The notes under the pieces were generated by a model that saw only the letters and a program-made list of their open reading frames with translations, did not search any database and had not been told where the DNA came from. From IMG/VR virus record IMGVR_UViG_2534681764_000015: 35,465 nt of DNA; one strand, given 5' to 3'. The translations under genes were made by a program, and so were the position numbers. Source of the DNA: a virus (taxonomy: Duplodnaviria; Heunggongvirae; Uroviricota; Caudoviricetes). Every line of letters starts with the position of its first letter. Position 1 is the stretch's first letter. Of the stretch, positions 688-34,047 are shown in pieces.

Positions 688-711
688 GGGACTCTTCGGA
701 GTCCCTTTTTT
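688..711 (+). terminator. rho-independent terminator candidate
   Basis: perfect hairpin GGGACTC-TTCG-GAGTCCC followed by TTTTTT; abuts stop codon of minus-strand gene 710..1654. Confidence 0.55.
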
Positions 712-1654
712 ATTGGCAGTAAGAAAAGTTAGTACCGTACATTTCATCATGAAGCATTGCAACATTGCGTTTCTGTTCTTCTTCCTCGTCTACCGCATCA
801 CTAGAAAAATGAGATTTGCCCTTAAAAGAACGAAGCAATTGCAGTGCAGCCATCGGATCACGCATCACATCGATTTTCACTTCTACTTCATCATTTGCGG
901 CCTCATCAGCCGCATTTTCAACTACTGCCACCGGAGCAACTTCTTTAGCTTTCAGTTCTTCAATCTCAGCTTTCTGTGCTTCGATGATCTGGTCTTTTTC
1001 TTCCAGCGCAGCTTTCAGTTCTGCGATCTGTGCTTCCAGTGCAGAGAAACGATCTTCAACAGCAACCGGAGAAACAGCATTAACCTGTGCTTCCAGTTCT
1101 ACGAAAGCGTCGCAAGATTCAATACGTGCTTTTTCTTCACCTTCATATGCAACCAGTTCTACTACTTCTTTCTCAGTAGTGTGGCTGTTAAAGAATACAG
1201 CAAAGTAAGGATTGCCGGATTTGGTGAAGTTCAGTTTAGCTTTTCCGGTAACTTCTTTACGACGACCAAAGGTAATGTTGCAATCAGCGGTATCCTGAAA
1301 ATCCATGTTAGGAGCGGAAACGATAGCAGTATCACCAGCAATCACTAGGTGGAACAGTTCAGAAGAGTTCTTAACGGTGAAAGTAACGATGTGGTCTACT
1401 GCAACGTCTTTAGCAGGTTTAACGCGGTCGATTGCTTTACGAATGCCGTTAGGCAGTTTACCGTCAACACCAAAGCCAGCCGCGATCAGTGCTTCACGAT
1501 GTGCTTTAAAGCCAGCGAAAGCGGATTTCTGCTGCGCAAAGGAAACATGAGCAACAACTTTCGGCTGAATCTTCTTGTTTGCTTCGGTGCCAAATTTGAT
1601 AACTGCTTTAGCGTTGGTTACTTCGTTAGTGAAAAAGTTAGCGGAAAATAACAT
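710..1654 (-). CDS. hypothetical protein with central coiled coil and acidic C-terminal tail (314 aa)
   Basis: long ORF with AGGAG 8 nt upstream of ATG; heptad-like segment ALEAQIAELKAALEEKDQIIEAQKAEIEELKAK; function not recognised. Confidence 0.6.
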   Translation of the reverse strand: MLFSANFFTNEVTNAKAVIKFGTEANKKIQPKVVAHVSFAQQKSAFAGFKAHREALIAAGFGVDGKLPNGIRKAIDRVKPAKDVAVDHIVTFTVKNSSELFHLVIAGDTAIVSAPNMDFQDTADCNITFGRRKEVTGKAKLNFTKSGNPYFAVFFNSHTTEKEVVELVAYEGEEKARIESCDAFVELEAQVNAVSPVAVEDRFSALEAQIAELKAALEEKDQIIEAQKAEIEELKAKEVAPVAVVENAADEAANDEVEVKIDVMRDPMAALQLLRSFKGKSHFSSDAVDEEEEQKRNVAMLHDEMYGTNFSYCQ

Positions 1655-1696
1655 TATAAATACTCCTGTAGAAAGTTAGTTTTAATTGTTCATTTC

Positions 1697-1740
1697 AAGC
1701 CTCCTTTGCTGCAACAAGGGAGGCTTTTTCTTTTTTTAAA
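1697..1740 (+). terminator. rho-independent terminator candidate (plus-strand polarity)
   Basis: hairpin AAGCCTCC...GGAGGCTT with extended stem followed by TTTTTCTTTTTTT. Confidence 0.5.
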
Positions 1741-1769: not shown

Positions 1770-1949
1770 TTAACAAACTTGAACGTTAATCTTTACCTGA
1801 ATTTCGTATTTCTTCATTAGCTTGTAGAATCCGCTTCTATCAATTCCTTCCTTCTTAAAGAAGTTTTCCCCGCCTCGCTCAGTGTCGCTGTAAAAGCGTT
1901 TAGCAATATCAACAATCATTTCACGAGTGAACTTAACAGGTCTAGCCAT
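1770..1949 (-). CDS. small putative DNA-binding protein, GRP/ARP-motif family (59 aa)
   Basis: ATG at 1949 with GAGGAA 9 nt upstream (ORF track starts at GTG 1964); N-terminal ARPVKFTREMIVDIAKRFY and C-terminal GFYKLMKKYEI motifs shared with 5376..5609. Confidence 0.5.
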   Translation of the reverse strand: MARPVKFTREMIVDIAKRFYSDTERGGENFFKKEGIDRSGFYKLMKKYEIQVKINVQVC

Positions 1950-2048
1950 CAGTCGATTCCTCACATGTGGATTAATAATTTCTTAAAAAAGAGCATTTCG
2001 CTCTGAACACTTGTATTTATAAAATGATTTTCAGAAAACCCTGTAAAA

Positions 2049-2070
2049 CCACTGTATATCCGATCAGTGG
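2049..2070. promoter_or_regulatory. 22-bp palindrome CCACTGTATATCCGATCAGTGG, SOS-box-like operator candidate
   Basis: CTGT-N8-TCAG core, one mismatch from LexA CTGT-N8-ACAG; perfect 6-bp dyad arms. Confidence 0.4.
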
Positions 2071-2133
2071 GAGCACGAATTGCTAAAGAGAAGATTAATT
2101 ATTAATCAATTCGTACAATATTCAACCGAAAAA

Positions 2134-2155
2134 GCACTGTATATCTAACCAGTGC
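2134..2155. promoter_or_regulatory. 22-bp palindrome GCACTGTATATCTAACCAGTGC, second SOS-box-like operator candidate
   Basis: shares ACTGTATATC with first box; outer arm base changed compensatorily so dyad symmetry is kept. Confidence 0.4.
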
Positions 2156-2306
2156 TGTATGAATTAGCAGTGAATCAGGAGATTTTCAGAAGTGAACAAT
2201 CATTTCACACATGTATTTATAACGTGGAAATTCTTGCTTATCATCTATATGGGGACTGTTTAGAAAATTTCAACCCCCACCAGTGAGAAAAAGTATAAAA
2301 TAATCC

Positions 2307-2320
2307 TTGACAGTTGTCAA
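2307..2320. promoter_or_regulatory. palindrome TTGACAGTTGTCAA (operator or -35 candidate)
   Basis: perfect inverted repeat of TTGACA hexamer; related palindrome at 3829..3848. Confidence 0.3.
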
Positions 2321-2516
2321 TACACTTGACCTAAGCGAGAAATGACTATCAAAATTTTTGTTTGAAAATGGTAGATCAGGATTATCAACCTTTATAACCT
2401 ATTATAGCACGGAGACCTTTTGACAATTCTTTTTAAATCATTAACTTACGCCACTTTTTGGTGATTTTTTGATTAAATAATATACAAGAATTTTCTATCA
2501 AAATATTTGATGGGAA

Positions 2517-2711
2517 TTGCCCCTGAAATTCTGAATTTTGCCCCCGAACCAAAATACCCAAGATTCCACTATCCCATTTTTGCCCCTGAAACCCACTATT
2601 TTTGCCCCTGAAATTCTGGGAAACAGTGATTTTGCCCCTCATTTTTGCCCCTGAAATGCCAATAATTGCCCCTGAAAATCTAATTTTTGCCCCTGAAATT
2701 TGCCCCCGAAA
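2517..2711 (+). repeat. array of nine direct iterons, consensus TTTTGCCCCTGAAA
   Basis: copies starting 2517, 2538, 2580, 2602, 2632, 2645, 2666, 2687, 2700; spacings mostly 21 bp multiples; no ORF. Confidence 0.7.
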
Positions 2712-2844
2712 AGGATTGGTAAGAAAAACTCTTTATAAAACATTAACTTAGTGAGGGGTAAAACGGGGAATCGGGCGTGCATAGATATTATATAACACAT
2801 TCGCTACGCTCATGTGTAAAACCAAAAATAACCAAAAAGATATT

Positions 2845-2864
2845 AGGAGGGCTTTGCCCGACTG
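2845..2864 (+). repeat. left copy of 20-bp direct repeat AGGAGGGCTTTGCCCGACTG
   Basis: 19/20 identical to copy at 3238..3257. Confidence 0.6.
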
Positions 2865-2974
2865 CGCGTAGCGCTAACCAATTACTTCTAGTAACAACTA
2901 ATTTAAACTAGATGATACTAGATGGTCTTAGAAGGAATTAACTAGTTTGCTCGCTCGCTTCGCTCACTCTCAAA

Positions 2975-2997
2975 CGTCTGCGACGCCACTGCGTGGC
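2975..2997. promoter_or_regulatory. GC-rich twin palindrome CGTCTGCGACG / GCCACTGCGTGGC
   Basis: two abutting perfect palindromes in an otherwise AT-rich non-coding region; candidate protein-recognition or cleavage site. Confidence 0.3.
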
Positions 2998-3237
2998 ATC
3001 GAGAATCACTTTTGAAAGGATTTTCTTAGAAAGGGATTTTAATACTAGATGATAACTGATTCTAGTAAACGAACGAAGTGAGTAACAATCACTTTCTAGA
3101 AAGGTATTGGTTATCCCTTCGGGATCGCAACCTGCGGTTGCTGAAATTGCTTCCTGATTATTCTTTCTTCGAAAGAAAGATTCTTATATTCTAAAGATAC
3201 TTCTTCGTTTTGATGATGATTTAATCAAAATCTATGA

Positions 3238-3257
3238 AGGAGGGCTATGCCCGACTG
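3238..3257 (+). repeat. right copy of 20-bp direct repeat AGGAGGGCTATGCCCGACTG
   Basis: 19/20 identical to copy at 2845..2864; lies about 90 bp upstream of gene 3348. Confidence 0.6.
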
Positions 3258-3347
3258 AATACCAATCCCTTCCAAATAGATAAAAAATTCTCGTTATAAA
3301 TACTAGTGTAATTTGTTTGATTCACTTTCTTTTAGAGGATTTCCACT

Positions 3348-3806
3348 ATGAACCACAAGATGACTACCACTACTCCTTTTATCCTTCTGGGTCTGGATTC
3401 TGATAGCTTCCACAATGACAAGTTAATGAAGATGTTCCGTGAACGTGGTTATAACATCCTTTTCAACTCTGATGAATCCCATTTCTCTAGTGCATGGTAT
3501 GCGTTTTGCCGTAATAAGAAGCCGACCATTGTTGTTAACGTCTTCACCGATGAAGAACGCTTAAAGTACCAGAATCTACCAGCAATTATTGTTCGTGATG
3601 ATCTGCCGTTTCAAGTCCGTTCCGGTGACATTGACCTGGGTAGCTTCTTGACTCTTCGTGAACTGGATGAAGCAATGTTTAATTACGGTAAAGAAACCGC
3701 TCAGGAAGCCCCAGAACAAGATGAGGAAGACGAAGACTACGCACCAATCGCTTTCTCTTCTCACGGTGGCTTCTACGGTTACGATGAAGGCTTAGATATG
3801 CTGTAA
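3348..3806 (+). CDS. hypothetical early protein with acidic C-terminal tail (152 aa)
   Basis: ORF with AGAGGA RBS; C-terminal EAPEQDEEDEDYAPIAF; first gene after the 1.4-kb non-coding region. Confidence 0.6.
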   Translation: MNHKMTTTTPFILLGLDSDSFHNDKLMKMFRERGYNILFNSDESHFSSAWYAFCRNKKPTIVVNVFTDEERLKYQNLPAIIVRDDLPFQVRSGDIDLGSFLTLRELDEAMFNYGKETAQEAPEQDEEDEDYAPIAFSSHGGFYGYDEGLDML

Positions 3807-3841
3807 GTTAGGTCAACCCTTTGGCGTCTTGTCAAGGGGTA

Positions 3842-3870
3842 TTGACAAAAATTTCTGACTTTTTTATGAT
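3842..3870 (+). promoter_or_regulatory. sigma70-type promoter TTGACA-N17-TATGAT
   Basis: consensus -35 at 3842-3847, 17-bp spacer, near-consensus -10 at 3865-3870, about 57 bp upstream of ATG 3927; -35 is the right half of inverted repeat 3829..3848. Confidence 0.55.
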
Positions 3871-3926
3871 TATCGCACTTGACAACTTTGAACCTATTTG
3901 ACCTAGATTTGTAAAGAGGATGTAAC

Positions 3927-4259
3927 ATGAAAGAATTTACCATCACTAAATCCCTGTATGACTGGACTGTTAAAATCTCCGGCAAAACCGTTTCTGTAAC
4001 CCCTAGCCATGTAGAAAATGATTGGGGTGTATCCCGTGAAACTATCTCCCGTAGTATGCATGTTCCGTTTGATCTGATGACCTTAACTGGTATTCATGCA
4101 ATGCTGGAAGTTCGCGAGCAATTCGAAGCTGGTAATCACAATGCGACTCCAGTTAACAATCACCTTCTTACTAATGAAGAACGTGAAATCATCGAAAATT
4201 GGCGTTATGAATATGCGATTCCTTATTATGAAGAAGACCAAGTAGAAATCGATTGGTAA
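3927..4259 (+). CDS. hypothetical protein (110 aa)
   Basis: ORF downstream of strong promoter with AAGAGGA RBS. Confidence 0.6.
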   Translation: MKEFTITKSLYDWTVKISGKTVSVTPSHVENDWGVSRETISRSMHVPFDLMTLTGIHAMLEVREQFEAGNHNATPVNNHLLTNEEREIIENWRYEYAIPYYEEDQVEIDW

Positions 4260-4348
4260 TAAATTTCTATCATAAATAAAATTGTTCCGGTTGAGATGCC
4301 GGAACTAGGAGGACCAAATCACTAAACCGTTTAAGGGGAATTTTTACT

Positions 4349-5182
4349 ATGAATACTGTTACTACTATGAATACTGCTGTTAAAACTGCTTCCGTGTCTC
4401 TGGTTGTTGATAACACCAAACCACTGACCATGTCTTCTCGTCAGATCGCTGAATTTACCGGAAAAGAACACCACAAAGTTAAAGTTGATATAACTAAGAT
4501 GTTGAATGCTCTAGGTTATGAAGATCACGCGAAGTTTCGCGTCATCTATTTTGACCAATACGGACGCGAACAAAACGAATATCAACTAGACGAAGAAATG
4601 ACTCTGACTCTTGTCACTGGTTACGATGTTAAGCGTCGAATGGTTGTTATTCAGGAATGGAAACGACTGAAAGAAGAAAATGAAAAACTGCGTTCTCAGC
4701 AAGTCAACCCATACGCAAACATGACTAAGCTCGATTGGATTCGTGAGGCAATGGAATTAGAAGCCGCAAACGAACAACTGATTCAAGAAAAAGAACAATT
4801 AGTTGATCTTCATATCCGTAAAGCTATTGATGCACACAGTCTTAGCCGCTTATTAGGCGAAAAACGAGGCTCTACGAAGGTACAAATGATTCTGAAAGGT
4901 TTATGTGCTGCTGGTGTTCTTGAGCGTCGTCTGGATGCTTCTGGTAAGCCTAAAGGCTATGATCTGCTTCCTCCTGGCTATATGTTCGCTCGTATGTCGG
5001 CACACGGTCAGATCGAGTTCACTGCTGATGCTATCCCGCATCTCGTAAAACTCGGATTGCTTGAAGAAGAAAAGGCCGCAACTTTGAAATTGCCACAGCC
5101 GAATAACTCACGAGCAATCATTAATAACACTGCTTTGCTGATTCGTCAGAATGCTGGCTCTCTGGAAGTCTTCGGACTGTAA
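4349..5182 (+). CDS. Rha-family phage regulatory protein / antirepressor-like (277 aa)
   Basis: N-terminal LTMSSRQIAEFTGKEHHKVKVDITKMLNAL...YFDQYGREQNEYQLDEEMTLTLVTGYD matches the Phage_pRha signature as recalled; coiled-coil middle. Confidence 0.65.
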   Translation: MNTVTTMNTAVKTASVSLVVDNTKPLTMSSRQIAEFTGKEHHKVKVDITKMLNALGYEDHAKFRVIYFDQYGREQNEYQLDEEMTLTLVTGYDVKRRMVVIQEWKRLKEENEKLRSQQVNPYANMTKLDWIREAMELEAANEQLIQEKEQLVDLHIRKAIDAHSLSRLLGEKRGSTKVQMILKGLCAAGVLERRLDASGKPKGYDLLPPGYMFARMSAHGQIEFTADAIPHLVKLGLLEEEKAATLKLPQPNNSRAIINNTALLIRQNAGSLEVFGL

Positions 5183-5188
5183 TAATTT

Positions 5189-5216
5189 TTGCCCCTGAAT
5201 TTCAGGGGCTTTTTTG
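5189..5216 (+). terminator. rho-independent terminator built from the iteron motif
   Basis: TTTTGCCCCTGAATTTCAGGGGC hairpin followed by TTTTTTG, directly after stop of 4349..5182. Confidence 0.65.
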
Positions 5217-5375
5217 TATCTGTAGATGCGCTGAACTTTAAGCGCATCCCTCCAGATTTGGATGCATCTATAGATCAGTCCAGATTTGGACTCAACTTAG
5301 AAATGAGCGCAGTTTTGCGCCGATTGTTTTACATACAAAAAAGCCACTCCGAAGAGTGGCAAAGAGAATCAAAAC

Positions 5376-5609
5376 TCAAAAACCTGTTGCTTCTACGATC
5401 TGACCATCACCGATCTGAACATAGAATTTAATGTCCAACTTCTTCATATTCTTATAGAATTGGGCGATTGAGATCCCATGTTCACTAAGAATCTGTTCTT
5501 TCGCTTCCTTACCACGATCCGCTGTATAATAAGCGTAGGCAATATCAGCCATCTGTTCAGCGTTAAAACGGGCAGGGCGACCGCGAGTAGCTTTAGTAGT
5601 CATAGTCAT
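5376..5609 (-). CDS. small putative DNA-binding protein, GRP-motif family (77 aa)
   Basis: ATG at 5609 with GGAGA upstream (track start 5636 is GTG); TRGRPARFNAEQMADIAYAYY and FYKNMKKLDI motifs paralogous to 1770..1949. Confidence 0.5.
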   Translation of the reverse strand: MTMTTKATRGRPARFNAEQMADIAYAYYTADRGKEAKEQILSEHGISIAQFYKNMKKLDIKFYVQIGDGQIVEATGF

Positions 5610-5638
5610 TTTCTCCAAATTAAAGTGAATGTTCACCT

Positions 5639-6244
5639 TTATTTAGAGGACTTACATTTTATCGGAAAAAGTTCTCCATCGTCAACCGACATAAAGAACT
5701 CTGCCTTAATCCCGTACTTCTTCAACCGTGAATAATATGTACCCCGACTAATATCAACCTTGCGCAGCACTTCGAAGAACTCTTTAGGATTCCTGTAATA
5801 GTGGCTATATCGCACGTTAGCGAGTTCTACAAACAATTCCCTTGAATCACCATAGCCTTTCTTAAAAGCCACATTACGATAGCGTGTAATGGCATGATTC
5901 AATCTCTTCTGTTTAAGCACTTCCCTAATCGGTGTCCACTGCAACCGATAGATAGGACCGTCATCTACTCGATAGAATCGCTTAATGTCAAAATCAAACC
6001 ATTCACGAACTCTATTAAACTCTGTCTGTGATGTACGATGCTTCTTAAAGAAGTTATGAATATCGGTATACCCATGATCGCGATACAACTCGATTAAAAT
6101 CTGTTTAGCTTCCTCACGACTAAAGCCAGATGTTGTGTAATCAGTCTTCTTGTGATGGTGCTTAACTGGCAAACGATATTCATGATCGGTACAACAAGAA
6201 AAGGCTAATTCTAATGCATCTCTTTGTTGCTGATTAATTAGCAT
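5639..6244 (-). CDS. hypothetical protein with C-terminal HTH-like motif (201 aa)
   Basis: ORF divergent from terminase; C-terminal ISRGTYYSRLKKYGI resembles the C-terminal motif of the two small GRP-family proteins. Confidence 0.55.
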   Translation of the reverse strand: MLINQQQRDALELAFSCCTDHEYRLPVKHHHKKTDYTTSGFSREEAKQILIELYRDHGYTDIHNFFKKHRTSQTEFNRVREWFDFDIKRFYRVDDGPIYRLQWTPIREVLKQKRLNHAITRYRNVAFKKGYGDSRELFVELANVRYSHYYRNPKEFFEVLRKVDISRGTYYSRLKKYGIKAEFFMSVDDGELFPIKCKSSK

Positions 6245-6331
6245 ACACCCCCCTTAAATCTTAATACCCGTATTTATCAAAATATCAACAATTTAATAAA
6301 TACCTTCATATTTCGTAATGAGGGTAATTAC

Positions 6332-8236
6332 ATGAAACTGATTTCTAATAAGGCAAAATTAAAAAAGATTCTCAGAAATATCTCTGCTGCAATTCGCCCA
6401 CCTAAAGCCATGAAACCTAGCGAATGGGTAGAGGCTAATGTAGTTGCAACCGATGGTGTTAAAGCCGGATCGCTAATTAAATTGCATCCTTTCCAACGTG
6501 GGATGATGGACGCGATCACCGAAGATAGGCGAAAAATTGTGCTAAAGTGCTCGGCGCAGTTGGGTAAAACTCTTGTGCTAAACGGTATTATCTTTCATAG
6601 GATCGCCAGCAACCCCACTAATATAGGTGTTTTGCAAGCAAACGTCCGCGAGTTGAATAGCTGGATCGCGGGTAAGGTGAAGCCAGTATTAGAGGCAACC
6701 CCAGAATTAAAGGCGATGATCACCGACAAGTCAGATCGCAATGCCGTTAACAACTCATCGATTATTCAGCTTCGTAACGGATCATTCATGTATTTCATGT
6801 CGTTGAATAGTCCATCACATCTTCGCGGTAAAACACTACCTTTGATTATTCTTGATGAAGTTGATGCGGCTGATGAGTCAGACGAAGGGAACCCGATCCA
6901 GCTAGCGGAACAACGCGCAACCACTTTCGGTGATGATGCAAGGATCGTAATTGCTTCTACTCCAACTTCGCGGGATGGGGCGATAAACCAACAATGGGAA
7001 CTCTCGGATAAAAGAAAATACCACGTCGTTTGCCAGCATTGCGGACACAAACACGTAATGGAATGGAGTAGAGTATTCTTTGATTGGCATGTAATCAATG
7101 GTAAATCACTGCCGAATCCAGACACAGCCGTTTACCGTTGCCCGTCATGTGAAACTGATTGGTCAGAACCAGATCGCCTCCGTGCTGTTGCTCAGGGAGA
7201 ATGGGTCGCCACCGAACCAAATGCGGAAGTAATCGGTTTTCATGCTAACCGCCTTATGTCTCCGTTTAGTTCTATCCGTGCGTGTGTGGTGGACTTTGCT
7301 GATAGCTACGCGAATATGTCGCTGGCAACGTTCTATAATGTGGTGCTCGGTGAAACCTTCGATGATCTTAACGAAGACCGCACAGCCGACGAACTGGAAA
7401 CGCTGAAAACTGACATTAGCTTAGATAATATTCCTGATGATGTTTTGGCTCTGGTAGGTGGAGTTGACCAGCAAAAAGACCGTCTGGAATCTACCTTGCT
7501 GGGTATCTCTCGTAAAGGGATATGCGTAGTTGATCACCGATCATTCTATGATGTGAACTGCGAACGCCACGAATCACCAGCATATGACCAGCTTTACAAC
7601 TTCCTGAAAGCAAAATTCTATACCCGATCCGGTCAACGAATCCCGATGCTATCCGCTTTCGTGGACTCATCAAACGGACGAGCTACGCAAGTGATCTACC
7701 GCTTTTGCACTAGGTGGCAAAATCTATGCGCCATTAAGGGCGCAAGTAATGTTGATGCTCCAATCCTTCCGGTAAAAGACACAAGAACGGGCGGTTTTAC
7801 CCTTAAAATTCTGGGCGTAAACAACCTTAAGACGATGATCCGTGAAATGATTAACCGGAACTTGAGAGACAGCGATCCTCATACGGTCTTCCAGATTGGT
7901 GACGTTCCTGATGACTACTGCGAGCAATTGCTATCTGAACAGTTGAAACGGCAGGGTAATACCACACGTTGGGTAAAAGTTGGTCAGCAACGCAACGAGG
8001 GCTTGGACTGCCTAACCTATGCGGTGGCTAGTTATCGCCATGTACTCAATAAAATGTCATGGGAAAAACTCGAAGCCATCAAAGATAGTTTGAACCGTGA
8101 ACCAGAAGAATCCGTAGAAGCTCCTAAATCGCAATCTGACGAGCAAATCGAAGAAAATAAGCCAATCACACGACCACAACGTAAAAACATCGCCAGACGC
8201 CCAAATAGAGGCCGTAGCTGGGTAACATCGTTCTAA
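6332..8236 (+). CDS. terminase large subunit, GpA (lambda) type (634 aa)
   Basis: Walker A-like CSAQLGKT, Walker B-like LIILDEVDAADE, Cys cluster CQHCGH...CPSC, size and position ahead of portal. Confidence 0.85.
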   Translation: MKLISNKAKLKKILRNISAAIRPPKAMKPSEWVEANVVATDGVKAGSLIKLHPFQRGMMDAITEDRRKIVLKCSAQLGKTLVLNGIIFHRIASNPTNIGVLQANVRELNSWIAGKVKPVLEATPELKAMITDKSDRNAVNNSSIIQLRNGSFMYFMSLNSPSHLRGKTLPLIILDEVDAADESDEGNPIQLAEQRATTFGDDARIVIASTPTSRDGAINQQWELSDKRKYHVVCQHCGHKHVMEWSRVFFDWHVINGKSLPNPDTAVYRCPSCETDWSEPDRLRAVAQGEWVATEPNAEVIGFHANRLMSPFSSIRACVVDFADSYANMSLATFYNVVLGETFDDLNEDRTADELETLKTDISLDNIPDDVLALVGGVDQQKDRLESTLLGISRKGICVVDHRSFYDVNCERHESPAYDQLYNFLKAKFYTRSGQRIPMLSAFVDSSNGRATQVIYRFCTRWQNLCAIKGASNVDAPILPVKDTRTGGFTLKILGVNNLKTMIREMINRNLRDSDPHTVFQIGDVPDDYCEQLLSEQLKRQGNTTRWVKVGQQRNEGLDCLTYAVASYRHVLNKMSWEKLEAIKDSLNREPEESVEAPKSQSDEQIEENKPITRPQRKNIARRPNRGRSWVTSF

Positions 8237-8308: not shown

Positions 8309-8803
8309 ATGAGTTTAGAACTAATTCCCTTAGTAATTCGTAAAGGTGAAAAAATCACGCTGGCGAATGAAGAGAGTGTAACAATTCAGGTAGGAAATAG
8401 TAAAGGTATCATTTATCAGGTTGATGACACTCCGGCTAATCACGAGATTAAAACCTTAGATTTTGCCGAAGGTAAATATACCATCGTAACCACTTTGGAA
8501 GAAGAACTGGTATCAATGCAGGAATTAACTGTTTTGCCAGTATTCGCCAAAATCTCCAAAAAAGACTATCTGCGGGAAACTATCGCCTTAATCGAGCAAG
8601 TTATTTTCGCCCGTTTATCTGGGGACGAAGCCGCATTATCAGCAATGACAGTGAAAGGGAATACTTTCGCCTATGAGTCATTGGCTGTTCTCCAGACTCT
8701 AAAAGTCGATTATGAACGTCAGTTATCAAAATTAATTCAAGCCGAACGACGTAAACAGGGAATTAGCCCGATTAAAAATATCAAATTACGTCTTACGCGA
8801 TAA
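8309..8803 (+). CDS. hypothetical head-module protein (164 aa)
   Basis: ORF between terminase and portal with AAGGGGTAA RBS; function not recognised. Confidence 0.5.
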   Translation: MSLELIPLVIRKGEKITLANEESVTIQVGNSKGIIYQVDDTPANHEIKTLDFAEGKYTIVTTLEEELVSMQELTVLPVFAKISKKDYLRETIALIEQVIFARLSGDEAALSAMTVKGNTFAYESLAVLQTLKVDYERQLSKLIQAERRKQGISPIKNIKLRLTR

Positions 8804-29443: not shown

Positions 29444-30481
29444 ATGGAGATTTTATTTGCTGAATATATCAACTACACCGGATTTACAAGAAAAACGCCT
29501 CTTGACTATGAACCTATTGCCATTAAACGTTGTGATGAGTTGGGGTACATCTATAACGGTTTTGTTGTGCCGTGGAAAGGGCAACATACACCCGTTTCTA
29601 TAACCTGCAAGAAACATAGCACAACGCGAACAATTGCTTTCAAAACTCTTAAAAAACAAGGTGCGTGTCTTGAATGCTATAAAGAATCATTAAAACTTCC
29701 TAAGAAAAAGAATAGAGATAAGGAAGCTGTATTAGATAAAGCAAGCAATGTGCTGGAACGCAAAGATATGGTTTTAGTTGGATTGTTAGAAGATTATAAA
29801 GGATTAGACACAAAAGTTTCTTATAAGTGCAATTGCTGTGATACTGCATACGAAACCATAATCACTAGAATCATAAACGATGATGCTGGGTGTCGTCATT
29901 GTGGGTCAATTAAGAGAGGAATCAATAAGAGAAAACACACAGACGACGAATGGATGGATCTAATTGAGCATGAATGCAGGAACAAACGACTTGAATTAAT
30001 AGAACAACCTAAATCTCCTATATTGTCAACATCAAAAATACACATCAAATGTGAAAAAGGTCATCTTTCTGATTCTTTGGTAGTTTATGGTTTAGTGTAT
30101 GAAAACTTAGGCTGTCCATGTTGTTCTAAAAATGGTTATAACAGAAGTAAGTCGGGAGTTTTCTACGTTCAACAGGTCGGAGATTATATAAAATATGGAA
30201 TAACAAACCATCTAAACCCACAAAAGCGAGTAACTCAACAAGCTAGGGAATCAGGGTTAAAACACAAGTTATTGTGGTATATAACGTTCGGTGACGGAAA
30301 AGTTGCCAATGACCTAGAGTATTCCGTAAAACATAACATAGGAAATCACGCTGCACCAAAAGAACTAATCCCAGACGGATATACAGAAACATGTGACATA
30401 ACCAAAGAAGCGCAGATTAGAAAAATGGCAATGGATTTTTGTAAAAACTCCAACAACTATAAAATTACATATAGGGGGTAA
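29444..30481 (+). CDS. Cys-rich protein with C-terminal GIY-YIG / T5orf172-like motif, paralog 1 (345 aa)
   Basis: three CxxC-type pairs (CKKH...CLEC, CNCC...CRHCG, CEKGH...CPCC) then GVFYVQQVGDYIKYGIT...RV; homologous to 31247..32245. Confidence 0.6.
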   Translation: MEILFAEYINYTGFTRKTPLDYEPIAIKRCDELGYIYNGFVVPWKGQHTPVSITCKKHSTTRTIAFKTLKKQGACLECYKESLKLPKKKNRDKEAVLDKASNVLERKDMVLVGLLEDYKGLDTKVSYKCNCCDTAYETIITRIINDDAGCRHCGSIKRGINKRKHTDDEWMDLIEHECRNKRLELIEQPKSPILSTSKIHIKCEKGHLSDSLVVYGLVYENLGCPCCSKNGYNRSKSGVFYVQQVGDYIKYGITNHLNPQKRVTQQARESGLKHKLLWYITFGDGKVANDLEYSVKHNIGNHAAPKELIPDGYTETCDITKEAQIRKMAMDFCKNSNNYKITYRG

Positions 30482-31246: not shown

Positions 31247-32245
31247 ATGAATACTACTTTAGCAAAGGATATCGAATTTACCGCAAAAAGCAAACGTGCG
31301 ACCCCTCCGGTCGAATATGAAACCAGAATCATTAAAGTTTGTCAAGTGCATGGATGGTTATACAGTGGTTTTGTGCTTCCTGTAAAGAAACCATTCCAGA
31401 ACACCAAAGTTTGCATAGAAGTTAACGGAAAGGTTAAAACGCCATGTATTAGTCATGTTCTAACTGGTCAGTTTACTGGCAAAGATAGAGTATCACCGCC
31501 TAAGAAGGAGTTTAGATTTACCGAAGAAGAACACTTAGAAAACGCTCGCAAGTTCTACAAGCCGATAGGGTGGGATGTGTTAGGTCTGGCTGAACCTTAT
31601 CAGGGTGTTGACACTAAACTAATTCTTCGTTGTAAGTGCCACGGAAAGATTCACAAGAAAGGTGATTTACACAATAACCGCAGACAAGGCGGGTTAACAT
31701 GCCCTTTGGTTAGGGGGGTACTTAAATCAATTCAGAATGGTAGAAAACAGGTTATCAGAAACAAGTTTGCACAGCGCCCTATGCACTTTTATCTAATTCG
31801 TGTTGGCGAGAAGTTTTTCAAATATGGAATTACCACTCGCAAAGATCCGATGCAACGGGTAAGAGAACACCAGAAGCACACCAGCGAGAAAATCACCTTT
31901 GAATGCTCACATTTGTTTAACATTGGATGGAAAGCTGGTGATTTAGAAATGGGGATTAAAAAGAATATTCAGGGCAAGAAAATCCCACGTAAGGTAATGA
32001 ATAGCGGATTCACAGAAACGCTACCGATTAGCAAGCTGAAAGATGTTAAATCATTCATCAATGAATACATCCACACCAACCCATCTAAGCCAATGTATTT
32101 TGATGATACCAACGCAATCAATCTGAACAACTACATTAGTGATGAAGACATAGAACGAGATTTATCGCAGTGGATGAATGCACCGTTAGCTGATTTAACA
32201 CCGGAAGACTTAGAACTCGATTTAAGCCCTTTAGAGGCTCTTTAA
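31247..32245 (+). CDS. GIY-YIG / T5orf172-like motif protein, paralog 2, Cys-depleted (332 aa)
   Basis: aligns with 29444..30481 at EYETRIIKVC...GFVLP, YQGVDTK, FYLIRVGEKFFKYGIT...QRV, GFTET. Confidence 0.6.
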   Translation: MNTTLAKDIEFTAKSKRATPPVEYETRIIKVCQVHGWLYSGFVLPVKKPFQNTKVCIEVNGKVKTPCISHVLTGQFTGKDRVSPPKKEFRFTEEEHLENARKFYKPIGWDVLGLAEPYQGVDTKLILRCKCHGKIHKKGDLHNNRRQGGLTCPLVRGVLKSIQNGRKQVIRNKFAQRPMHFYLIRVGEKFFKYGITTRKDPMQRVREHQKHTSEKITFECSHLFNIGWKAGDLEMGIKKNIQGKKIPRKVMNSGFTETLPISKLKDVKSFINEYIHTNPSKPMYFDDTNAINLNNYISDEDIERDLSQWMNAPLADLTPEDLELDLSPLEAL

Positions 32246-32318: not shown

Positions 32319-33998
32319 TTAAATTCCAAATTCCTGTAATGGACCTGGTATTTCCTCTTCTGGTTTCCAGTTCTTATCTGTCAGCATGTCTAAACATGGA
32401 TGCAAAACAAGCCCGTTACTCTCCAGAATCTGCCTATCATTGATAGTTTTCAAATCAATGAATATCCGGCCTTTCCTCGTTCCTCTTGAATTTTCTATTA
32501 CAACTCTCTGGGTCTTTCCATCGATGTATTCCAGCACAAACAAGTTTTTATTTCTGTCAATCCTGCTACACCCGATCCGCTTTAGAGCTTGCTTAATCTT
32601 AAACCGGACCTTTAGTCGTTCCTCGTTATAAACATCTTCTAAATCAAATTCTGCGAGCTTCTCCCAGCCTTGAGAGTCCACAGAATACATTTCCTCTTCT
32701 GCCATCTTGATCTGATTGTAGAGTGTTTCACGCTCGCTATTGAGGGTAGTAATCTGATCGGCTAGCTCCTTCGTTGCTCCTGTCATAGCAGAAAGGGCAA
32801 TCAGGTTATCAATCTTGCGTGATATTTCATCAACCTGTACTTTCAACGCCGGAACCGGATTAGCCTTGTCCTCAGCAATCCAGATTTTATCAGCCAGCAA
32901 TTGCAATACAGCTTTCTCTAATTGATCACCTCGAAAACTCCAGTTTGGATGCTCGCAATCAAGTCTACGTGAACGGGTCGCATCACATGTATAACGATAC
33001 TGGTCAGAACGTTTGTTCGTTCCCTTCACTTTAACCATAGCGCAACCGCAATGATCACATTTCAATAGGCCAATACCACTAAGCAGGGGGATCGGTTTAA
33101 CTTCTTCCTTGTCTCCAAAGTTCCATGCTCTAGCACCAATATTTTTCTTAAGGTGATAGAACGTAGCATCATCAATAACACGAGGGTAATAATCCTTTAA
33201 CTCATAGTTAACACCATCTACAGAGACTTCCTTGATACCAATCAAAGCGCGGGTATGGAACAACCTTTCAACCATTGCCCGTGACCATTTTGAATGCTTC
33301 TTATTACTAACCGCTGGTGGCGGTGTATATGTCTCGTTAAGGTGATCCAGTATTTCGGCGGTTGAACGTCCATTCTTCCGTAATTCCACAATCTCCTGAA
33401 CAACAGGGAAGTATGTAGGATGAGGCAACACATAACCGGAAGTGGTATCCGTCCACCACATATTCTTTCCAACTTCCTCGATTGCCACTGCCGGATTCTG
33501 GGGATTTTCTTGATGGGCTTTAATCTTAATCAGTGCGCTTGAGTTAGTACGATTGCGCTTAGTCTGGCTTTCCTCATTACCACGGATGAATAAAAGGATG
33601 GAGAACATCAGGTCCATCGGGTTAGCGGTAACAGTATCCAGCGAGTAGATCTTGTTATCCATGCCAGTAACAATGGTTATCCCCCTACGGATGATTGAAA
33701 GGAATAACTCCTGCGCACTGACAATATCGGCACGGGATAAGCGGTCCAAGTTTTCAATGAATAGCCAGCTACCAACAGGAACGGATCTACCAATTGCATC
33801 AAGGAAACGAGATAGCGCCCCTGTTTTGGAGTTAGCACCCTTAAACGCAGATACACCCAGATCCTGATAATCATTTACCAGTTCAAGGTCATACTTTGCC
33901 GCAACCTCTCTCGCCATCCTGATTTGTCGTTCATAACTCGAACCATCATTCTGACGCATAGACGAGAAGCGAATATACGAATACAGTTTAGTTTTCAT
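32319..33998 (-). CDS. large serine recombinase (integrase-type) (about 559 aa)
   Basis: N-terminal LYSYIRFSSMRQ catalytic-Ser motif of the resolvase/invertase domain, Cys cluster CDHCGC...C...C (zinc ribbon), C-terminal coiled coil; ORF track extends to TTG at 34013. Confidence 0.85.
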   Translation of the reverse strand: MKTKLYSYIRFSSMRQNDGSSYERQIRMAREVAAKYDLELVNDYQDLGVSAFKGANSKTGALSRFLDAIGRSVPVGSWLFIENLDRLSRADIVSAQELFLSIIRRGITIVTGMDNKIYSLDTVTANPMDLMFSILLFIRGNEESQTKRNRTNSSALIKIKAHQENPQNPAVAIEEVGKNMWWTDTTSGYVLPHPTYFPVVQEIVELRKNGRSTAEILDHLNETYTPPPAVSNKKHSKWSRAMVERLFHTRALIGIKEVSVDGVNYELKDYYPRVIDDATFYHLKKNIGARAWNFGDKEEVKPIPLLSGIGLLKCDHCGCAMVKVKGTNKRSDQYRYTCDATRSRRLDCEHPNWSFRGDQLEKAVLQLLADKIWIAEDKANPVPALKVQVDEISRKIDNLIALSAMTGATKELADQITTLNSERETLYNQIKMAEEEMYSVDSQGWEKLAEFDLEDVYNEERLKVRFKIKQALKRIGCSRIDRNKNLFVLEYIDGKTQRVVIENSRGTRKGRIFIDLKTINDRQILESNGLVLHPCLDMLTDKNWKPEEEIPGPLQEFGI

Positions 33999-34010
33999 AC
34001 CATTTCCAAA

Positions 34011-34047
34011 CAAAAACGCCCCTACCGCGTATTATAACGATAGGGGC
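34011..34047 (-). terminator. rho-independent terminator candidate for gene 34062..34481
   Basis: minus-strand hairpin GCCCCTA...TAGGGGC followed by GTTTTTG. Confidence 0.45.

Follow-up and report, generated by a model that had tools for sequence, protein, structure and literature searches.

The prophage held in the IMG/VR record IMGVR_UViG_2534681764_000015 (35,465 nucleotides analysed, referred to here as the window; about 35 kb of prophage with a G+C content of 41%) encodes on the minus strand of its early region three small proteins, named here A, B and C, and the question raised by this locus is what kind of proteins these are and what they do for the phage. An earlier note on the same DNA had taken them for a family of small DNA-binding proteins, either small terminase subunits or phage regulators. 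A, B and C are paralogues and contain among them four copies of one domain. The best explanation found is that they are lineage-specific, sequence-specific DNA-binding proteins built from a single module of about 60 residues, and that they regulate the prophage's own promoters, those of a replication module in the case of A and those at the junction with the late operon in the case of C and B, a reading to which we give about an even chance.

The three reading frames lie on the minus strand at the positions given beforehand and contain the motifs quoted for them (Table 1): close to the N-terminus, ARPVKF in A and GRPARF in B, followed by DIAKRFY in A and DIAYAYY in B, and near the C-terminus GIDRSGFYKLMKK in A and GISIAQFYKNMKK in B, with ISRGTYYSRLKKYGI in C. 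Chance cannot account for the similarity. A and B matched each other in BLASTP (E=1e-9), and the comparison of the A family with the B family by hhalign gave a probability of 97% (E=5e-11). With the C-terminal domain of C, the hhalign probabilities were 95.5% for A and 89% for B. The search of A against C with BLASTP yielded two matches, and the N-terminal domain of C was aligned to A by hhalign with 96% probability (E=5e-9), while the two domains of C matched each other when the C alignment was split (E=1.8e-5). The 201-residue C does carry the related C-terminal copy described in the earlier note, which overlooked a second copy at residues 36-105. A hidden Markov model of the domain, run on the six-frame translation of the window, detected exactly four copies, the next best match having E=0.25. 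All three proteins are basic, with isoelectric points of 9.0–9.6.

Concerning the start codons, the 59-residue form of A is taken as correct because the start MARPVKF is invariant in 25 homologues of gene A; a ribosome-binding site, GAGGA, lies 8 nt upstream. The 77-residue form of B read previously (5376-5609) is the less likely one, as the homologues and the spacing to a GGAG motif favour the second ATG, which gives 75 residues. The arm of B, RGRPxRF, is invariant, as is that of A. The segment GISIAQFYK of the helix-turn-helix (HTH) of B is invariant across E. coli, Salmonella and Proteus.

Table 1. Positions of the features considered in this work (in the window, except for the last row; + and - denote the strand).
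Feature	Positions	Strand	Remarks
p314, partner gene of A	710-1654	-	N-terminal domain, coiled coil, acidic tail
Predicted antisense RNA between A and p314	1656-1736	+	About 65 nt; ATAAATAC -10-like element and terminator
Antisense terminator	1697-1726 and T-run	+	35-45 nt after the -10-like element
Gene A	1770-1949	-	59 residues; arm MARPVKFTRE, HTH and short strand; opens the A-p314 operon
Hairpin and T-run	1985-2004	-	Directly before the ribosome-binding site of A
ATAAATAC element before A	2013-2020	-
Three LexA-box-like sites, CTG-N10-CAG	2050-2069, 2135-2154, 2153-2172		Leader of A
Promoter toward A	2292-2320	-	Sigma-70 consensus, TTGACA-17-TATACT
Palindrome TTGACAnnTGTCAA	2307-2320		Covers the -35 hexamer of the A promoter
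Iteron array	2517-2709	+	9 copies of TTGCCCC(T/C)(G/C)A, some of them spaced 21-22 bp apart
Terminator at the end of the C-B operon	5343-5360	-	Intrinsic; found by terminator scan
Gene B	5376-5603	-	75 residues; arm RGRPxRF, HTH and beta-hairpin
Gene C	5639-6244	-	201 residues; conserved N-terminal helix and two domain copies; in operon with B
C domain 2, residues 128-195	5660-5863	-	hhalign against A and B; helices 135-147, 153-162, 167-177; strand 181-187
C domain 1, residues 36-105	5930-6139	-	hhalign against A; helices 43-57, 62-68, 73-83; strands 87-93, 98-101
C-TerL intergenic region	6245-6331
ATAAATAC element for C	6270-6277	-	25 nt upstream of the C start codon
IHF-like core	6283-6295		Between the two back-to-back ATAAATAC elements
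ATAAATAC element for TerL	6296-6303	+	28 nt upstream of the TerL start codon
TerL	6332-8236		Large terminase, lambda-type gpA
All ATAAATAC copies	1656; 2020, 2220; 3296; 6277; 6296; 29009; 29397		In this order: antisense unit; before A (two); before p152; before C; before TerL; before gene 29044; before gene 29444
Regions compared for p314 and iterons	L004 13440-13570; L002 12205-13663		Positions in the respective related loci

In the AlphaFold2 models, each copy of the domain is formed by three helices followed by a beta-hairpin, and in A and B an extended (A/G)RP arm precedes them, an arm which is absent from both domains of C. The model of B (mean predicted local distance difference test score, pLDDT, 79) has helices at residues 15-27, 32-41 and 46-55 and strands at 61-64 and 68-71. 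In the model of C (pLDDT 71; predicted template modelling score 0.62), a basic disordered linker joins the two domains, and the conserved N-terminal helix stands in front of them. As predicted by these models, the fold class is that of an arm, a three-helix HTH and a beta-hairpin. The expectation that A, B and C bind DNA is well supported by these predicted HTH structures, together with the basic isoelectric points and the fact that the remote relatives of the family are HTH proteins.

The affiliation of the domain was examined with profile searches, in which neither A nor B nor C matched any model of Pfam, PHROG, NCBIfam or PADLOC. When 28 members of the A/B family were compared with Pfam, the matches were scattered and below threshold (HTH_Tnp_1, HTH_7 and similar models): HTH_7 (PF02796) was matched by 2 of the 28 members (best E=0.059), but by none of A, B and C themselves at E<=1, and HTH_Tnp_1 (PF01527) by 5 (best E=0.017), every protein of the window staying below its threshold; a remote homologue, P0086, reached 22.9 bits against HTH_Tnp_1, under the 24.1 bits required. 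A profile search of 1.84 billion representatives returned 13 proteins only, which comprised the family's own members, a handful of divergent proteins like A and proteins with tandem HTH repeats; the remote tandem-HTH relatives are classed by Pfam as HTH_Tnp_1, HTH_23, HTH_28 or HTH_7. Weak structural matches were obtained to the HTHs of Myb, CENP-B, Brinker, Tc3, IS3 transposase and sigma region 4, and the sequence search of the PDB gave as its only match, a non-significant one, the tandem-HTH protein 2lvs (E=0.3).

The nearest known types are the C-terminal DNA-binding domain of serine recombinases (Hin, gamma-delta resolvase; HTH_7), with the related HTH_23 and HTH_28 domains, and the HTH of IS3 transposases. 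In the serine recombinases, a G/A-R-P arm stands directly before a three-helix HTH, as it does in A and B, and the recognition helix follows the pattern S-x-(S/T)-(F/L/Y)-Y-(K/R) that is common to the family. The A/B profile was aligned weakly to Hin by hhalign (P=0.003), in register from the GRP through the HTH. Unlike Hin and the resolvase, A, B and C are stand-alone reading frames lacking a catalytic domain, and the family has an additional C-terminal beta-hairpin; unlike the HTH of IS3-family OrfA proteins (HTH_Tnp_1), it has neither a leucine zipper nor a transposase context. So, the domain is a new, narrow family within the resolvase/transposase branch of HTH domains, and it fails membership of each of the families named, HTH_7, HTH_Tnp_1 and small terminase. 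To find one more small HTH family among the early genes of a phage is in itself unsurprising, and the architecture of the modules that surround it is more unusual.

Related prophages were found in 63 of 5,426 complete E. coli genomes, where they interrupt ycdX, and the lineage occurs also in Salmonella and Proteus, with a truncated PHP-domain gene at the corresponding prophage end, adjoined by ghrA in Salmonella. In the related E. coli prophages, the early-region genes are annotated as 'hypothetical', except for Rha. A DNA-level search of deposited phage genomes found none similar to the window, GenBank phages and PLSDB plasmids contained no relative of the region, of gene C, of an A-like gene or of the gene for p314, the protein of about 314 residues encoded after A, and a literature search on the ycdX prophage found nothing relevant; the prophage lineage is devoid of any characterised relative. 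Besides the large terminase subunit (TerL), the window encodes a portal, a protease-capsid fusion, tail and lysis genes, and a large serine recombinase (564 residues, 32319-34013) that is its sole recombinase. A scan of the window recognised no small terminase subunit (TerS), CI/Cro-type repressor, helicase, primase or recombination directionality factor (RDF), and its Rfam scan gave no match.

The comparison set consisted of 34 IMG/VR loci and five genome loci (E. coli, Proteus and three of Salmonella). In every relative locus of sufficient length, A, B and C are kept in identical order: TerL, the divergent C-B pair, variable genes, 1.2–1.7 kb of non-coding DNA, A, and p314. The intervening neighbours (Rha-like, p110 and p152) are variable or replaced among the relatives, and A, B and C can be considered core genes of the lineage, since they are present in all the loci that are long enough. 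What is new here is that three core genes are recognised as one DNA-binding family and that the iterons of the locus are assigned to another protein, and these results offer concrete handles on regulation in this phage group.

Concerning the iterons, the array of the window had been considered in the earlier note as a target of the family, and this is contradicted by the comparison among relatives. p314 is not a member of the A/B/C family. At least three unrelated types of p314 N-terminal domain exist, each with its own iteron, TTGCCCCTGAA, GTGTAGGTTT or GCTAGGGAT: relatives carry GTGTAGGTTT repeats instead of those of the window, and Proteus carries GCTAGGGAT repeats. In 31 of 31 loci classified, the iteron type tracks the type of the p314 N-terminal domain, type T1 (MLFSAN...) pairing with TTYAGGGGCAA and type T2 (MKNSKR...) with GTGTAGG. 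In Salmonella, p314 proteins that differ at the C-terminus but share 78–79% identity with T1 or T2 in the N-terminal domain are accompanied by the iteron of that type. On the other hand, the two types of A occur with T1 and T2 in all four combinations, and the loci L003 and L004 have identical C and B proteins with different iterons. A, B and C are independent of iteron type, and the iterons belong to p314 rather than to the family, because iteron type covaries with the p314 N-terminal domain alone. It seems reasonable to interpret that p314 would be the iteron-binding protein, and it is probably a replication initiator of the origin-binding kind, although it has no detectable homology to any Rep family and matches no other known family either.

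A precedes p314 in each of the 31 loci classified. Between the two genes, on the opposite strand, a small antisense RNA is predicted, whose -10-like element, a copy of the 8-mer ATAAATAC, abuts the p314 start codon and has a correctly oriented intrinsic terminator after it. This layout, with unrelated sequences, is repeated in T1, T2 and T3 prophages and in a cassette of a T4-like phage; five divergent versions of it were seen. The T4-like cassette lies in a 168-kb phage contig that encodes the most distant homologue of A (P0079, 64 residues), and combines GC-rich hairpins and about ten AGCGATTAC iterons with a promoter, that A-like gene, a terminator accompanied by an antisense element, and the gene for a 204-residue protein that is 38% identical to the N-terminal domain of the Proteus p314 (E=1.6e-14). 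Judged from these arrangements, A and the putative iteron-binding protein are bound together in a module of two genes, to which a predicted countertranscript belongs.

In plasmid copy control, a cop-antisense-rep arrangement is known from R1 (copB-copA-repA) and from pMV158 (copG-rnaII-repB). The prophage module presents in the same order a promoter, a small, presumably DNA-binding protein, a predicted countertranscribed RNA and a presumed iteron- or origin-binding initiator, and some of the prophage relatives have in addition a palindrome over the -35 hexamer of the operon promoter. Unlike in those plasmids, A is an HTH protein and not a ribbon-helix-helix protein, p314 resembles none of the Rep families, and the module resides in an integrated phage. 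We infer that A regulates the replication module because the A-antisense-p314 arrangement matches that of the plasmids. The module would comprise the promoter, A, the countertranscribed small RNA, p314 and the iterons, with A acting on the promoter of the operon or on that of the antisense RNA. A cop-antisense-rep-like replication module is thereby delimited which is common to this prophage lineage and to a T4-like phage.

The leader of A extends over about 290 nt from a consensus promoter, and the layout of ATAAATAC element, hairpin and T-run in front of the gene is kept in all relatives. The palindrome over the -35 hexamer was considered as a universal operator of A and was discarded, as it is present in version I leaders and in Salmonella and missing in version II. 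Binding of A to the CACTG-N10-CAGTG palindromes of the leader was likewise discarded: these boxes occur with both types of A, are missing in many loci and resemble LexA boxes. Two of the three LexA-like sites of the window (2135-2154 and 2153-2172) overlap as in colicin operators, and such boxes appear in some relatives only, the Salmonella locus L040 having the near-consensus TACTGTATGAATATACAGTA. SOS control may be direct in this phage, since no CI-type repressor is recognisable in the window.

A different role for A has to be weighed here, namely that it would assist p314 in initiating replication, as an accessory protein that binds the origin or as an architectural one, with B and C as architectural, DNA-bending proteins. 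A is invariably encoded with p314 beside the iterons, the T4-like phage included, and the design of an arm plus an HTH is like that of the Hin domain, which anchors itself in the minor groove. Nevertheless, the four combinations of A types with p314 and iteron types reveal no specific co-adaptation, and the cop-like gene order with its antisense unit points to control and not to catalysis. This role is considered unlikely.

Another feature worth noting is the ATAAATAC element itself, of which the window contains 8 exact copies versus 1.8 expected, a number reached in 0 of 100 shuffles. All 8 copies are intergenic, although intergenic DNA makes up 11.6% of the window, and 7 of the 8 are located 25–63 nt upstream of a start codon. 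Salmonella and Proteus carry the element at the corresponding sites. Two subclasses can be distinguished, an early one that reads AAAAAATTCTCGTTATAAATACtaGTGT and a late one that reads ATAAATACCyTCAT, and the promoters with a ATAAATAC core have no -35 element. The late promoter of T4 is TATAAATA, which ATAAATAC resembles, and ATAAATAC may need a phage factor. A cascade can be envisaged in which ATAAATAC promoters would be used only with the help of the family, A first and then C and B redirecting the host RNA polymerase, but this is improbable in our estimate, and so, to the same degree, is its corollary that the two-HTH protein C would imitate sigma region 4 or appropriate sigma at the promoters of early, late, lysis and antisense units; no particular family member could be linked to ATAAATAC. 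If true, such a cascade would constitute a new phage transcription programme derived from duplicated resolvase-type HTH domains.

C and B form an operon divergent from TerL. A hairpin with a T-run is found just 3' of B in all the relatives shown, its stem differing in sequence in Salmonella and Proteus. The intergenic region between C and TerL hardly varies among E. coli, Proteus and Salmonella, with a length of 85–88 bp in most loci and of 55 bp in L033 and L038, and contains two ATAAATAC elements back to back, which are 26, 34 or 42 bp apart depending on the relative. It is this variable spacing that indicates that the two inverted elements act as independent promoter-type elements; their interpretation as a single dimer site or as a cosB site is weakened by it.

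The conservation of this region differs markedly from that of TerL, of which otherwise similar E. coli prophages carry three alleles with 54–59% mutual identity, the N-terminal 50 residues included (the TerL of the window was compared with those of L004, L007 and L033). C proteins 87–99% identical to that of the window occur with different TerL alleles, and one TerL allele pairs also with a C of 49% identity. L003 and L004, which share identical C and B, have TerL proteins 93% and 57% identical, respectively, to that of the window. C and B are independent of the TerL allele. As alleles reassort on either side of near-invariant DNA, the intergenic region can be regarded as a recombination junction between early and packaging genes, and C and B are on the regulatory side of this junction, facing conserved DNA rather than a conserved protein partner.

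These data bear on the proposal, contained in the earlier note, that the family provides the small terminase subunit. In that case, C and/or B would recognise the DNA for the gpA-type terminase as its small subunit, although their genes diverge from that of TerL. No TerS is detectable in the window with Pfam or PHROG, C and B constantly adjoin TerL, their back-to-back promoters could give co-expression, the IHF-like site between inverted motifs recalls the cosB of lambda, and the types of C have in common a conserved N-terminal helix (ELELAxSC) and C-terminal tail. Moreover, lambda Nu1 and Sf6 gp1 are also small basic proteins with an N-terminal HTH whose genes lie beside a gpA-type TerL, and the Sf6-type TerS has a GRP-arm HTH as well (hhalign P=0.02). 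The differences, however, are several. None of the TerS profiles in Pfam, PHROGs and NCBIfam (Nu1, PF07471; Sf6-type, PF20901; PHROG TerS) was matched by A, B or C; the orientation is divergent from TerL; no oligomerisation helix or coiled coil is predicted, the model of C consisting of two HTH domains with disordered linkers and B of a single domain; TerL alleles of 54–59% identity pair with C proteins 87–99% identical to that of the window and the same TerL with the 49% C; and the spacing of the inverted motifs is variable. Since the alleles reassort, the genes diverge from TerL, no TerS profile is matched and no segment for oligomerisation is predicted, we prefer a regulator of the late promoter region over a TerS, and the terminase role appears slightly less probable than the already unlikely architectural one. 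By its position between TerL and portal, a 164-residue product (8309-8803) would be a candidate for TerS; it has a weak match to the PHROG 'head-tail joining' (E=1.9e-7).

Returning to the regulation of the prophage's own promoters as the preferred reading, C, as a built-in pseudo-dimer with two HTHs, and B would be expressed from the promoter that lies back to back with that of TerL, and could act on the invariant 85–88 bp region or on ATAAATAC-core promoters generally, with the result that late transcription would be switched on or timed. An analogy is offered by Mor and C of phage Mu, dimers with a C-terminal HTH that activate the middle and late promoters: in both cases, paralogous small HTH proteins are encoded in separate units, one of them beside late genes. 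Unlike a true relationship, the analogy extends to no similarity of sequence or profile and to no Mor-family match in Pfam. DNA binding itself, the target sites and the direction of regulation are what we infer for the family. Several observations weigh against this reading. No operator that covaries with any family member was found among the relatives, and the -35 palindrome is missing from the version II leaders, where a ATAAATAC-type promoter replaces the consensus one. The ATAAATAC element may simply be an unusual, -35-less variant of the sigma-70 -10 element, Proteus having a canonical TAAAAT at the antisense ATAAATAC site, and consensus and ATAAATAC promoters replacing one another in some relatives. 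The AlphaFold2 models were built on shallow alignments, and in a phage with no identified small terminase or repressor, a family member could take one of these roles. A part in the lysis-lysogeny switch, the other role named in the earlier note, is conceivable.

The weakest alternative, a very improbable one, is that one member (most plausibly A or B) is an RDF or another protein-binding modulator, similar to an anti-repressor, for the large serine integrase or LexA: a large serine recombinase is present with no RDF identified in the window, some serine-integrase RDFs are small proteins and the three LexA-like boxes lie upstream of A, but the positions of the genes show no link to the integrase, no integrase accompanies the A-like gene of the T4-like phage, the proteins are basic and shaped as HTHs, and the LexA boxes are missing in many relatives that retain A.

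Some other features of the window and its relatives were recorded. The convergent intergenic region between Rha and B (5210-5340) contains short hairpins of the form stem-AAAWYT-stem, for instance TCCAGATTTGGA and GCGCTGAACTTTAAGCGC, whose number varies from 0 to about 8, with counterparts at 10859-11077 in L040 and 10872-11142 in L042. The Rha terminator, GCCCCTGAATTTCAGGGGC, is a hairpin of the same type and holds an iteron-like TTGCCCCTGA whatever the iteron type of the locus. Between the iterons and p152 (2800-3260), GC-rich mini-hairpins (GGAGGGCTTTGCCC, GACGCCACTGCGTGGCATC) alternate with AT-rich CTAGTA/CTAGAA repeats; this block is modular and variable in relatives, a similar one precedes the iterons of the T4-like cassette, and it may be an origin or a cos site.

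The record of Escherichia phage DCP80 (PQ671644.1, locus L047, region 1-45000), classified as a T4-like Gaprivervirus, starts with a lambda-type structural module of about 22 kb, in which the order of the genes is the same as in the window and TerL is 43% identical to that of the window; the T4-type genes for endonuclease VII, motA, ndd and rIIA come after it. The record represents a true hybrid or else an assembly chimera. Its upstream reading frames were considered as a guide to a TerS homologue in the window and were discarded, as no similarity was found. Finally, the reading frames at 29444-30481 and 31247-32245, which flank the M15 endolysin gene, encode paralogous proteins of about 340 residues that resemble each other at the N-terminus and have a C-terminal segment of T5orf172/GIY-YIG-like character; these are probably genes of the moron or homing type.

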